Source of the DNA: Phycisphaerae bacterium
GTDB lineage: Bacteria; Planctomycetota; Phycisphaerae; UBA1845
Assembly (NCBI GenBank): GCA_046715855.1
Contig: JBKJYI010000099.1
Span: 1-25,938, forward strand
Direction: 5' to 3'
DNA length: 25,938 nucleotides
A program made the translations under genes and the position numbers. The notes under the pieces were generated by a model. It saw nothing but the letters and a program-made list of their open reading frames with translations, had not been told where the DNA came from and searched no databases. Within the stretch, counting starts at the first letter, position 1. Each line of letters starts with the position of its first letter. This document shows positions 10,902 to 15,525 of the stretch, one piece after another.

Positions 10902-11028
10902 GATGTGGCGACTTGGTGATATGGTGATGTATCCTTATGCTATTTAGTGCCGAGTGGCTACGGCCTAAAGGACACAGTCGTGCGTTGCTATACATCGCCA
11001 AATCACCACTTCACCAAATCACCACATA
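10902..11028. repeat. Inverted pair of octamer tandem arrays (GATNTGGT / ACCANATC) around a 57-nt core with a hairpin
   Basis: Left arm GATGTGGC GACTTGGT GATATGGT GATGTAT (10902-10932). Right arm ATACATC GCCAAATC ACCACTTC ACCAAATC ACCACATA (10990-11028). Confidence 0.75.
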
Positions 11029-12003
11029 ACAAAGCCTGAACTCATCGTCACCCACGAAATCGCCCCCCTCCCCGAACGCAGCCGCGAGGCGCACAAGGGC
11101 GACATGGGCCGCCTGCTCATCATCGGAGGCTCGAATTCCGACACGCTCATGATCGGCGCCCCCGCCCTCGCCGCCAACGCCGCATTCCGCGCCGGCGCCG
11201 GCCTGGTCCAGATGCTCGTCCCCGCCGAACTCCGCGAATCCGTCTGCGTCCTCGCCCCTTGTGCCACGGCTCGCACGCTCCCACACTCTCCGCAGGACAT
11301 CATTCGATGTGCATCCGACTATGCTGCCAATGTGCTTGCTGTGGGTCCTGGCTTGGGGCGAACGCTCTCCGCCCAAACCATCATTCAATTGCTCGACACC
11401 TTCGCCGGCCCCTGCGTCGTCGACGCCGACGCCCTCAACATGCTCGCTGAGTCTGGGCGAGCCGCGAACTTCACTTTGCGCGGAGCGGCGGATCCCGACT
11501 CCCACCCAATCGACAATCGACAATCGCAAATCGAAAATACGCCGCCGCCCTGGCCTATCCGCGACGCCCACCGCGTCGTGCTCACGCCGCACTCCGGCGA
11601 GGCCCGCCGCCTGCTCGACTCCTTCGCCATCACCAAAACGATCGACACCACGCCGCAGTCCCGCCGCGCCGCCGCATACGCCCTCGTGCAAGCCACCGGC
11701 TGCACCGTCGTCCTCAAAGGCCACAACACCGTCGTCACCAACGGCGACCGAATCTACACCAATGAAACAGGCAATCCCGGCATGGCCACGGCCGGCGCCG
11801 GTGATGTGCTCACCGGCATCATCGCCGCCCTGATCGGCCAGCACATGCCGCCCTTCGAAGCCGCCGTCCTGGGCGTCTACCTCCACGGCCTGGCCGGCGA
11901 CTTCGCCGCCGAAGAATTAGGCCGCCACGCCATGACCGCCCTCGACATCATGGACTACCTCCCCGAAGCCTTCATCGAACACGACTCCACCTCCACCGCT
12001 TGA
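11026..12003 (+). CDS. nnrD: ADP-dependent NAD(P)H-hydrate dehydratase (stand-alone NnrD); start codon unresolved
   Basis: LPERSREAHKGDMGRLLIIGGS, GAPALAA.AAFRAGAGLV, VGPGLG, VVDADAL, VLTPHSGEA, VLKG and MATAGAGDVLTGII. The conserved HKG motif lies upstream of the first ATG (11104), so 11026 (ATA) is a tentative start. Confidence 0.88.
   Translation: MTKPELIVTHEIAPLPERSREAHKGDMGRLLIIGGSNSDTLMIGAPALAANAAFRAGAGLVQMLVPAELRESVCVLAPCATARTLPHSPQDIIRCASDYAANVLAVGPGLGRTLSAQTIIQLLDTFAGPCVVDADALNMLAESGRAANFTLRGAADPDSHPIDNRQSQIENTPPPWPIRDAHRVVLTPHSGEARRLLDSFAITKTIDTTPQSRRAAAYALVQATGCTVVLKGHNTVVTNGDRIYTNETGNPGMATAGAGDVLTGIIAALIGQHMPPFEAAVLGVYLHGLAGDFAAEELGRHAMTALDIMDYLPEAFIEHDSTSTA
11457..11538 (+). repeat. 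Intragenic repeat block in nnrD: REP-like family E copy plus heptamer array
   Basis: 11457-11484 matches intergenic 13830-13857 at 26/28 nt. 11508-11538 reads AATCGAC AATCGAC AATCGCA AATCGAA AAT. Confidence 0.8.
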
Positions 12004-12390: not shown

Positions 12391-13686
12391 TCACTCATAC
12401 CGCAGCGCATCAATCGGATCGAGCCGCGCTGCCGACATCGCCGGGTACATGCCGAAGAAAATACCCACCATGACCGACAGGCCAAAACTGATGGCCACCG
12501 ACCACCCCCGAACAATCCTTTCCCAGTCCGCGAACTGGCTCACCACATGCGCCCCCCCAATTCCCAGCAGTACGCCAATGATCCCGCCCGCAGTCGAAAG
12601 TACGACGGTTTCAACAAGGAATTGCAAAGTGATGTGCCGCCGCTTGGCCCCCAGCGCCCGGCGAATGCCGATCTCGCGCGTGCGCTCCGTAACCGTGGCC
12701 AGCATGATGTTCATAATGCCGATGCCGCCCACCAGCAGCGAGATGCCCGCGATAAAGCCCAGTGTGAGCTGGTTGTTGCGCTTCTTTTTCTTGGCCAACT
12801 CCAGCCGGGCCAACGGCACCTTCACTTCATAGTCAAGGTTGCTGTGATTGTACTCCAGGACGCGTTCGACCATTTTCGAAACCGGCAGCACGTGATCAAT
12901 CTCATCGATGTGCACGTACAGGCCTGAGTATTGCATCTTGGTCAGCTCGCGCGAGCCCGCGCCCATGCGCCGCGTCGTCTCGCCGAATTGCGAAATGGCC
13001 GTCTCGAACGGCACCAGAATCTCACTGTTGAGATCGCGCTCTTCGACACCGCGCGCCGGCGCCCCCGCGGTCTTCACTTCTTCCAAAATCCCCACCACCG
13101 TGAAGGGCACGCCGCTGGGGAAGCGCTCAGCCAGGATCGTTTCACCCAGCGGGTCCTTGAGCGGAAATAGCTTCGACCGTACGGAACTGCCGATCACGCA
13201 GACGTTGGTCCGCTCGATCACGTCCTGATGCGTGAGGGCCCGACCCTGTGCGACCTTGATGTTGACCACGTCGAAAAACTCCGGGCCGGTGCCGACAACT
13301 TCGAAGTTATGCTGCTGATCGCCATGCCGCACGCGATACGACACAATCTTGAGCGGCACCACGTGCTCCACGTGCGGGATGGTGGCCTTGAGCATATCGA
13401 GGTCGGCGCGGGTGATGCCGTATTGCAGAAGAAAGCTGTTGCTGCTCGACGACGATTGATTGTTCTGCGGCGGCTTGACCGAGTTGATAATGATATTCTG
13501 CGTGCCCAGCAGCTGGATCATGCGCATCTCGTCGGCCGACGCGCCCTCGGAAATCGAAAGCATGCAGATCACCGCCGCCACGCCAAAAATAATGCCCAGC
13601 GACGTAAGCAACGACCGCAGCTTGTGCAGCCGCAGGTTGTCCACCCCGAGCTTGAATGTCTCAAACGACAGCAGTTTCACGCCCAT
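12391..13686 (-). CDS. ABC transporter permease, MacB/FtsX family
   Basis: RSLLTSLGIIFGVAAVI..SISEG, a periplasmic core, and the C-terminal ISLLVGGIGIMNIMLATVTERTREIGIRRALGA...QFLVE...GIFFGMYPA..AARLDPIDALRYE. Confidence 0.92.
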   Translation of the reverse strand: MGVKLLSFETFKLGVDNLRLHKLRSLLTSLGIIFGVAAVICMLSISEGASADEMRMIQLLGTQNIIINSVKPPQNNQSSSSSNSFLLQYGITRADLDMLKATIPHVEHVVPLKIVSYRVRHGDQQHNFEVVGTGPEFFDVVNIKVAQGRALTHQDVIERTNVCVIGSSVRSKLFPLKDPLGETILAERFPSGVPFTVVGILEEVKTAGAPARGVEERDLNSEILVPFETAISQFGETTRRMGAGSRELTKMQYSGLYVHIDEIDHVLPVSKMVERVLEYNHSNLDYEVKVPLARLELAKKKKRNNQLTLGFIAGISLLVGGIGIMNIMLATVTERTREIGIRRALGAKRRHITLQFLVETVVLSTAGGIIGVLLGIGGAHVVSQFADWERIVRGWSVAISFGLSVMVGIFFGMYPAMSAARLDPIDALRYE

Positions 13687-13829: not shown

Positions 13830-13857
13830 GCGAGCCGCGAACTTCAGTTCGCGCGGA
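13830..13857. repeat. REP-like family E hairpin GCGAGCCGCGAACTTCAGTTCGCGCGGA
   Basis: Perfect stem CGCGAAC-TTCA-GTTCGCG. Second copy inside nnrD. Confidence 0.75.
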
Positions 13858-14139: not shown

Positions 14140-15525
14140 ATGAGCCGAGCCGTTTGCATTGCGGCGTTAGCCGTTCTTTGTGCCGAGTCTGTCGCCGACA
14201 CAATTCACGTTCCGGGTGAGGCACCGACAATACAAATTGCCATCGCGAAGGCGGCACCATTCGACTCGATCATCGTTGCGCCGGGTGAATACTTTGAGGC
14301 CATCAGCTTCGGCGGCAAGGTGATTACCGTCCAAAGCTCGAATCCCAATGATCCCGCTGTCGTGGCCGCAACCATCATCAACGCGGGCGGGCTGGGGTCC
14401 GTCGTCACCTTCTCGGGCGGTGAGGACCAAGTAAACACGGTGATTGACGGGTTCACCGTGACGGGCGGAACTATTGGCATCGACGCGCATAGTTCAAAGG
14501 CAGTAATTCGGCGGTGCGTGATTAGGGACAATAGCGGCGCGGGCGTATTCCAAGCCGACGGCACCATCGAAGATTGCGAGGTAAGTGGAAATAACGGGGC
14601 CGGCCTTAGTGATTGCGATGGAACAATTGAACGGTCCACCATCCAAAACAATCGCACTTCCGGGCTGCAAGAGTGCGACGGCTTAATCCGCGACACCATT
14701 GTTGAAACAACCAGAGAAGGGCCTGGCATAGCAGGCGGGGCCATTGACTTAGTTCGATGTGTTGTGCGCGGTAATGCGAGCGCAGGCGTGCAGGTTTATG
14801 CATGCTGTTGGCCGCATACTGGCGACATTGAGCAATCTTACATAATCGGCAACGGTTACGTTGGCATCCTCGGCCAAGGGAACACCGGACCAAGTGGGAC
14901 GGTAAAGAACACGGTCGTCGCCGGGAATCGAAACACTGGAGTCGTGAATTCAACAAAGAATTTCATTAGCTGCACGATCACCGGCAATAAAAACTACGGC
15001 ATCGAAAGCGGACTCGGTACAATCCGGCATGTCATTTTCTGGGATAATGCACTCGGTGCGATTAGTAATTCGACCACACCGCAATTCTCAGGCACGTCAA
15101 ACCCTTATTTCGTTGAACCCGGCTTCTGGGACTTGGTCAACAACGTCTGGGTCGATGGCGATTACCACTTGTCGCCGAATTCTCCCTTCATTGACGCGGG
15201 GGATCCCGCCTACACATCCAGCCCGAGCAACCCAACGGTAGACATCGACGGCAACCCGCGCATCGTCGGGGCCCGGGTAGACATTGGGGCGTTCGAGTTT
15301 CAGGCTGAATGCGAAGGGGACGATTTCGACGGCGACGAAACGCCGGATATTTGCGACCGAGATATTGACGGCGACGGAATTCTGAATGTCCCGGACGTAT
15401 GCGACGACACGTCGCTCGATGTGCCAGTCGGGGGCAATGGTAGGCCGTTGGCGGACCTGAATAACGATTGTTCTGTGAACCTCAAAGATTTCGCGGAGTT
15501 TCAAAAGAGCATGGGCGAGCCGTGA
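14140..15525 (+). CDS. Secreted right-handed beta-helix protein with choice-of-anchor-Q-like segment, TSP3-like Ca-binding repeats and a dockerin-like tail
   Basis: Signal peptide; IHVPGEAPTIQIAI..IIVAPGEY N-cap; repeated I.GN..G beta-helix rungs; DYHLSPNSPFIDAGDP..DIDGNPRIVGARVDIGAFE; DFDGDETPDICDRDIDGDG; ADLNNDCSVNLKDFAEFQ. Confidence 0.75.
   Translation: MSRAVCIAALAVLCAESVADTIHVPGEAPTIQIAIAKAAPFDSIIVAPGEYFEAISFGGKVITVQSSNPNDPAVVAATIINAGGLGSVVTFSGGEDQVNTVIDGFTVTGGTIGIDAHSSKAVIRRCVIRDNSGAGVFQADGTIEDCEVSGNNGAGLSDCDGTIERSTIQNNRTSGLQECDGLIRDTIVETTREGPGIAGGAIDLVRCVVRGNASAGVQVYACCWPHTGDIEQSYIIGNGYVGILGQGNTGPSGTVKNTVVAGNRNTGVVNSTKNFISCTITGNKNYGIESGLGTIRHVIFWDNALGAISNSTTPQFSGTSNPYFVEPGFWDLVNNVWVDGDYHLSPNSPFIDAGDPAYTSSPSNPTVDIDGNPRIVGARVDIGAFEFQAECEGDDFDGDETPDICDRDIDGDGILNVPDVCDDTSLDVPVGGNGRPLADLNNDCSVNLKDFAEFQKSMGEP

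Follow-up and report, generated by a model that had tools for sequence, protein, structure and literature searches.

How does a housekeeping enzyme come to carry a loop of some thirty residues that most of its orthologues lack? The question is raised by an nnrD gene in a metagenome bin of a planctomycete (3.18 Mb in 587 contigs, 74.7% complete, 58.5% GC). This source genome is labelled G000 here; G001 and G002 are other species of the same genus, and G016 belongs to another genus. The window, that is, the whole stretch of DNA analysed, is the 25.9-kb contig C99 of G000. A sequence-only reading of this locus had proposed that selfish repeats add a peptide loop to the enzyme. That proposal has held: orthologues without the repeats have a short loop, and both parts of the insert are dispersed repeats. 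It is highly probable that two dispersed repeat modules were fixed in frame in nnrD as a tolerated, translated loop. The block would be a mosaic of one hairpin unit, called family E, and one heptamer module of 4.4 units (Table 1).

Table 1. Features of the nnrD locus, with positions in the window
Feature	Position	Strand	Description
nnrD (ADP-dependent NAD(P)H-hydrate dehydratase)	11032..12003	+	Pfam PF01256 Carb_kinase, E 6.6e-52
Whole inserted block	11458..11550	+	93 nt, 31 codons (R119 to P149); from alignment with 18 relatives, 80 distant loci and 20 metagenomic homologues
Family E hairpin unit (REP-like) with 3′ tail	11456..11493	+	26/28 nt to 13830-13857; read RAANFTLRG plus further residues
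Spacer between hairpin and array, non-repeat	11494..11505	+	Unmatched elsewhere in the genome; among sister proteins, evolves fastest of all parts of the loop
Heptamer module	11506..11538	+	4.6 units of AATCGAC type; read PIDNRQSQIEN; blastn matches to arrays on other contigs
TPPP tail, before a conserved Trp	11539..11550	+	Four codons; absent in short-loop orthologues, variable among sisters
Intergenic consensus copy of family E	13830..13857	+	Perfect 7-bp stem, TTCA loop; between divergent ORFs 12391-13686 (-) and 14140-15525 (+)

The host gene and its start

The Carb_kinase domain, conserved motifs and ribokinase-like fold of the host protein identify it as an NnrD/YjeF_C enzyme. All 26 alignment columns that are invariant across 70 homologues are kept in the G000 protein, and an AlphaFold model computed from an alignment of 70 homologues has a mean pLDDT of 91.3. 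The best Foldseek matches of this model are the solved NnrD structures TM0922 and YxkO, with TM scores of 0.70–0.77 to TM0922, EF1790 and YxkO. With the insert excluded, dN/dS is 0.08 against G001 and 0.15 against G002, at a dS of ∼1.5–1.9. Outside the insert, nnrD is thus under strong purifying selection.

The true start of the G000 gene is uncertain. The forward-strand open reading frame has its first ATG at 11104 and ends at 12003, and a conserved N-terminal stretch of 24 codons lies in frame from ∼11035. Orthologous NnrDs begin 24 codons 5′ of the first G000 ATG with M-(P/S)-ELIVTHEIAPLP... (window 11020–11106). G000 retains these upstream codons, in frame and conserved, and has AAG at 11032 where the orthologues have their ATG start codon. 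No ATG, GTG or TTG lies between the upstream stop (before 10969) and 11104, and an in-frame ATA or ATC just 5′ of the AAG is a candidate non-canonical start. Either such a start is used, or the sequence contains a base error, or the N-terminal HKG motif has been lost; given the AAG at the canonical start position, expression of the G000 allele is not fully clear. Repeats border the 5′ end of the gene too, as an 8-nt tandem array of 4.5 copies (10992–11027) abuts the presumed start.

The same AAG would favour a reading in which the block is not translated at all, either because nnrD is a pseudogene or because the insert is bypassed or removed from the RNA. Nonetheless, the frame is open, five diverged lineages share a loop of exactly 35 residues, and the gene outside the insert has the low dN/dS and the full set of invariant residues given above. 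A search of the window against Rfam returned no family, and no intron-like RNA was found there either. With the use of reading frames by other copies of the hairpin (see below), this makes non-translation very unlikely, and we continue with the tolerated, translated loop.

Anatomy of the insert

Relative to the empty site, 31 codons replace one, so that the protein gains a net 30 residues in frame. The sequence-only reading had delimited an 81-nt block at 11458–11538. Its start and its two modules were placed correctly; comparison with the empty site moves its end to 11550 and its length to 93 nt. Because this length is a multiple of three and no stop falls in frame, the block would be translated as a surface loop. 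The insertion site would be a loop that leads from the helix after the DADAL motif to the TPH-bearing strand.

The hairpin comes first. The match of 11457–11484 to the intergenic copy was confirmed as first described, with both differences in the 3′ arm of the 7-bp stem: a G-to-C change at the loop-closing pair and a C-to-T change that gives a G·U wobble. Five of the seven Watson–Crick pairs are left, which makes the nnrD hairpin one of the two most degraded among the 108 E copies of the genome. The heptamer array, also recognised earlier in the 3′ part of the block, was recovered by Tandem Repeats Finder at 11507–11538 (period 7, 4.6 copies, 88% matches).

The AlphaFold model loses confidence over the insert. 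The pLDDT is 58–70 at residues 121–150 and mostly 88 or higher elsewhere, barring a short dip near residue 225. The insert is probably a floppy, hydrophilic, disordered surface loop of ∼30 residues. Judging from the strand–helix–loop–strand order of the model, it would lie at that end of the sheet which faces away from the active-site motifs, and a loop of this size may be tolerated by the enzyme.

No target-site duplication was found at the nnrD junctions when the filled G000 site was compared with the empty G002 site. No other G000 locus carries the same composite of hairpin, spacer and heptamers as one unit, and the hairpin and heptamer modules may therefore have come separately.

Family E is a dispersed hairpin repeat

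Family E is a multi-copy, mostly intergenic element, as the sequence-only reading had supposed. G000 contains 50 exact copies of the 28-mer and 108 copies with up to 4–5 mismatches, on ∼90 contigs. Two other species of the genus have 28 and 122 copies (122 in G002), and E is abundant in three other genera of the same family as well; G016 has 132 copies and G015 has 66. It was not found in 31 of the 41 relatives searched, and the reversed pattern gave no match in any of the 41 genomes. The E match in nnrD is far beyond chance.

The unit consists of a 7-bp stem with a 4-nt loop, and ∼29 nt are conserved. All seven Watson–Crick pairs are present in 85 of the 108 copies, and at 19 pair positions that differ from the consensus the pairing is kept by compensatory double changes. 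Pairs of E copies are convergent in eight cases (spacer mode 38 nt), tandem in six and divergent in none. The 3′ tail reads ACGN in 31 copies (CGTC on the other strand), ACTC in 25 and ATTC in 10, and GTAG does not occur. Folding energies could not be distinguished from those of shuffled sequences, a comparison that says little for stems this short and GC-rich. With its fixed-geometry inverted dimers and compensated stems, E behaves like the REP of a REP/RAYT system.

E copies also have neighbours. At least two further dispersed repeat families adjoin them (G000 C487, C377, C502, C410; C199, C330, C347, C430). One is G-rich and is read as a GEGRGEAP-type peptide; the other is a C6/G6 palindrome.

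The heptamer module

Heptamer arrays are likewise dispersed, with 29 in G000 against none in a reversed control. They typically have ∼4.4 units and end in AAT, and this nearly constant size suggests a fixed-size element rather than a free microsatellite. In-gene arrays lie in the sense orientation, with an NRQSxID-type peptide, in 8–9 cases; the one on C268 is also open in antisense. Several heptamer modules (C173:3916, C272, C502, C182, C61) end a few bases 5′ of a start codon, for example that of dnaE. The placement of the module points to either a rule on orientation or a function in leader regions.

Both modules speak to the idea that the loop grew in place by slippage or duplication and resembles dispersed repeats through convergence. 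Tandem heptamers could indeed expand by slippage, and the loop varies between 10 and 35 residues among the ingroup proteins described below. However, growth in place would have to reproduce 26 of 28 nt of a hairpin with ∼100 copies, and an array of the same fixed size (∼4.4 units, ending in AAT) as at least 20 dispersed copies. Moreover, E and the heptamers stand side by side in YfbK-like, HemN-like and RlmI-like genes. The probability that the nnrD loop arose in this way is minute, and insertion of the two modules is the far better reading.

Empty sites and the age of the insertion

The site without the insert is well documented. In the alignment, a gap of ∼30 residues falls exactly at the insert in 16 of 18 relatives, including G002 of the same genus, just as the sequence-only reading had predicted. 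That reading had also called the DADAL-to-TPH spacing unusually long. D107 and T161 are 54 residues apart in G000, against 23–29 (mode 24) in 79 of 80 distant NnrD loci, which came from a contig scan that left out near relatives; the remaining locus has 37. The Thermotoga maritima structure has ∼10 residues where the G000 protein has 42.

Closer homologues were sought among 5.8 billion proteins, and the sister loci are known as protein sequences. Four metagenomic NnrDs from independent data sets (JGI, Logan, ENA), namely P0002, P0003, P0004 and P0008, have the same 35-residue loop; three are at 87–88% identity and one is at 71%. The consensus E peptide RAANFSSRG is still encoded in three of these four sister proteins, P0002 and P0003 among them, while the E part of P0004 is much more degraded than in the others. 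Since P0002 and P0003 encode the consensus peptide, the two stem-breaking changes in the G000 hairpin are taken to be derived.

The sister proteins also bear on the suspicion of an assembly artefact, in which repeats would have produced a chimera in a fragmented bin. The suspicion has some grounds in a genome of 587 contigs and 75% completeness, many of whose contigs end in E copies. However, the gene continues in frame on both sides of the block within a 25.9-kb contig, and four proteins of other data sets have the same loop in the same place. We regard an artefact as extremely improbable and treat the insertion as real.

The loop can be placed on a tree. It is 10–35 residues long in all 15 ingroup proteins and 5 residues long in the six outgroup proteins, and a tree calculated from the rest of the protein gives the ingroup 100/99 support and its interior no resolution. 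From these comparisons, the insertion is old, and no fewer than four further lineages at species level share it. A single event in an ancestor, with later deletion and scrambling in most lineages, is the simplest account. This ancestor of the related species would have lived after the G002 lineage had branched off. Repeated insertion at a permissive nnrD site, instead of one ancestral event, is a conceivable alternative.

Constraint on the loop is relaxed. Among the four closest proteins, the insert is 56–66% identical and the rest of the protein 90–91%, and the nnrD loop has evolved ∼4 times faster than the remaining protein. A recognisable repeat has been lost in 10 of the 15 ingroup lineages. 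The sequence of events would thus be an insertion after which the loop evolved several times faster than the protein and was shortened or scrambled in most descendants. The relaxation is uneven, since the E-coded and heptamer-coded parts are much better conserved among the sisters than the spacer and tail. The E peptide, for example, is identical between P0002 and P0008, though identity drops to 73% over their other residues. Such conservation of the repeat-coded parts above the spacer and tail is not what pure neutrality would predict.

The same-genus species G001 has a loop of its own. It is unique, with 21 residues, 16 more than the short loop, and is not a repeat within G001. The best local match between the G000 insert and this loop is 13/14 nt, which 63 of 2000 shuffles equal.

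In-frame repeats in other genes

The insertion in nnrD has company. Open frames that span E copies or heptamer arrays were screened by codon usage and Pfam, and besides nnrD at least 14 G000 genes have E or the heptamers in frame between or inside Pfam domains. The sequence-only reading had likened the insert to Rickettsia palindromic elements (RPEs), an analogy that holds in behaviour, namely in-frame insertion into many genes.

E itself occurs in frame as 24 copies in 14 G000 genes. It is found in single or multiple copies in nnrD, secA, nuoL, dapF, ksgA (two copies) and genes for YfbK-like and HemN-like proteins and an RlmI-like methyltransferase. Pairs are present in dnaE, in metH and in pyrB, where the pair lies between the two domains. 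Five copies are present in alaS, and a MurD fusion has E inside its ligase domain. An ABC transporter gene with two copies in the region of its C-terminal tail belongs to the list of 14 and is not firmly intragenic. Nor are the copies near the N-termini of LeuRS, a 3-hydroxyacyl-CoA dehydrogenase and a TPR protein, where starts and stops are uncertain. Heptamer arrays lie in frame in oxoprolinase, mutS, rsmE and other genes. Among the orthologues compared, some of the inserts are absent and others are shared.

Two of the host genes illustrate the variety of sites. The MurD gene (L025, G000:C185, 196–2019, minus strand) carries an N-terminal fusion to a D-glutamate cyclase-like domain (GLUCM-like_C), and its E unit falls within the Mur ligase middle domain, just past the P-loop. 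In pyrB, an E pair occupies the loop of the G000 gene; G001 has a different repeat-like sequence there, and in G002 and G010 the loop is short. The G-rich GEGRGEAP-type family seems to contribute to the G001 loop.

Across genes, four of the five open frames of E are used, and the stop-containing frame is used by none of the 24 in-gene copies, as is expected only if ribosomes read the inserts. Genes contain at least 22% of the E copies, a share that falls far short of the random expectation for a mostly coding genome but is high for a REP family.

Fate of the hairpin inside genes

Does the hairpin decay once it becomes coding, as the sequence-only reading had it? For nnrD the claim stands, as sister proteins keep RAANFSSRG, and it also stands for metH, where G000 has an intact E pair whose orthologue is half-decayed in G001 and has almost disappeared from G002. 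As a rule it fails: perfect stems are found in 19 of 24 genic copies and in 66 of 84 other copies. The alaS gene (L035, G000:C522, 386–3814, minus strand) goes against it as well. Its five in-frame copies form two pairs and one single unit, and G002 alaS has E at the same five alignment columns, plus three more copies in or just upstream of the gene. Orthologous copies are 92–100% identical between G000 and G002, two of them with compensatory stem swaps, whereas identity at 4-fold sites is only 48.6% and the spacers have drifted apart. To judge from these orthologues, in-gene E copies are long-lived, and some appear to be maintained or refreshed while others decay.

Such persistence raises the prospect of exaptation. 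The hairpin or array might be selected as nucleic acid, for protein binding, pausing, mRNA stability or as a RAYT substrate, or the peptide might have gained a role. This would account for the near-identity of the five alaS hairpins amid diverged 4-fold sites, for perfect stems being equally frequent in genic and non-genic copies, and for the almost invariable orientation of in-gene heptamer arrays. It would also fit the conservation of the E- and heptamer-coded parts of the nnrD loop above its spacer and tail, with the E peptide shared by P0002 and P0008. However, the metH hairpins have decayed in G001 and G002, 10 of 15 nnrD ingroup lineages have no recognisable repeat, and the G000 copy has two stem-breaking changes. 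The pattern would arise just as well without function, through gene conversion from the ∼100 other copies or through renewed insertion at a hot spot. A role for the peptide is doubtful in particular because genes read E in four different frames. On balance, exaptation is unlikely for the nnrD insert, and a loop that is tolerated is the preferred reading.

A candidate mobilising enzyme

A possible source of E mobility was found in relatives. In G016, a Y1 domain of ∼190 residues, which bears HUH and Y-x-x-Q motifs, has exact inverted copies of E on either side (L237/L240, G016:C931). In G002, of the same genus as G000, a 57%-identical homologue is flanked by compensatory E variants (L239, G002:C3, 1739–6196, minus strand). 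Both Y1 domains lie in frame inside valS without stops, in open frames of up to 1485 residues. Homologous Y1 domains lie in frame in valS (G007, G017), leuS (G028), alaS (G008, G024) and the gene for an MmeI-type enzyme (G010). In G008 alaS, the domain occupies the site of the first E pair of the G000 and G002 genes.

The best NCBIfam match of the Y1 domain is REP_Tyr_transpos, at an E value of 1e-9 that is below the curated cut-off, and its PDB matches are weak ones to IS200-type transposases. None of the four Y1_Tnp genes of G000 is flanked by E, and G000 valS is assembled only for its last 67 codons. The valS-nested, RAYT-like HUH/Y1 transposase is likely to be the mobilising enzyme of family E. 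One of the four G000 genes, which encodes 158 aa, is flanked on both sides by another hairpin family, one that contains GTAG, together with a second hairpin (L037, G000:C320, ∼1490–2350); this is a classic REPtron of another REP family.

A bolder reading joins the transposase to the persistence of the hairpins. It would have a REP–RAYT system that dwells in coding sequences, with in-gene hairpins kept by selection or by ‘refreshing’ through transposase or gene conversion, and with the transposase housed in valS. It draws on the alaS copies, which keep their identity and swap stem pairs while synonymous sites are saturated. We put this forward tentatively, as a possibility that we favour less than its absence.

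Relation to known systems

Rickettsia and other bacteria already provide cases of this phenomenon, to which nnrD adds a clear new one. Intragenic REPs were catalogued by Di Nocera, De Gregorio and Rocco in 2013. They encode 20–30 residues, often come as dimers and often lie in replication, repair and tRNA-synthetase genes, with the highest counts in Opitutus terrae and Rickettsia conorii (PMC3733652). Like the elements of REP/REPIN–RAYT systems, E is a short, GC-rich, imperfect palindrome of ∼100 copies with fixed-geometry inverted dimers and compensated stems. As with intragenic REPs, a minority of copies lie in frame and encode 10–30 extra residues. A RAYT-like Y1 transposase flanked by E is also present, in relatives only. 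However, E has no clear GTAG or CGTC tag (a CGTC-like end is seen in 31 of 108 copies), its genic share of at least 22% is high, and its hairpin is combined with an unrelated heptamer-array module. The candidate transposase also differs from its REP–RAYT counterparts in being nested in frame in valS rather than free-standing.

RPEs, described by Ogata et al. in 2000, are the classic case of in-frame repeats in genes, according to two later accounts (PMC10969869, PMC3733652). As those accounts describe them, RPEs resemble the present repeats in occupying many unrelated housekeeping genes, in adding surface peptides compatible with fold and function, and in being common to related species. By the same description, RPE-1 measures ∼100–150 bp, which sets it apart from a 25–38-nt hairpin unit plus tandem array. 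RPE hosts appear there as AT-rich and obligately intracellular, unlike a free-living planctomycete of 58% GC. With a host from another phylum, sequence membership in a Rickettsia RPE family is not to be expected. MITEs such as Nezha, Correia and ERIC are similar in being small, non-autonomous, dispersed repeats able to create in-frame fusions. Unlike MITEs, the nnrD block has neither the terminal inverted repeats of DDE insertion sequences nor a target-site duplication. Our literature search found no paper on in-gene REP insertion in planctomycetes or on RAYTs nested in tRNA-synthetase genes.

Significance

In a free-living planctomycete with a GC-rich genome, REP-type repeats enter housekeeping genes at a rate similar to that seen in Rickettsia. 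For one of these genes, nnrD, there is a dated series that runs from species with an intact loop, through species in which it is degraded, to the majority, in which it is scrambled. This makes it possible to quantify the way in which junk peptides are accommodated by proteins, and to ask whether hairpins within genes are maintained. The solo hairpin in nnrD is also linked to a transposase with an in-frame position inside valS in the same genus. Finally, inserts of this kind bear on annotation, as in many planctomycete proteins they account for odd loop lengths and for HMM matches that are split.
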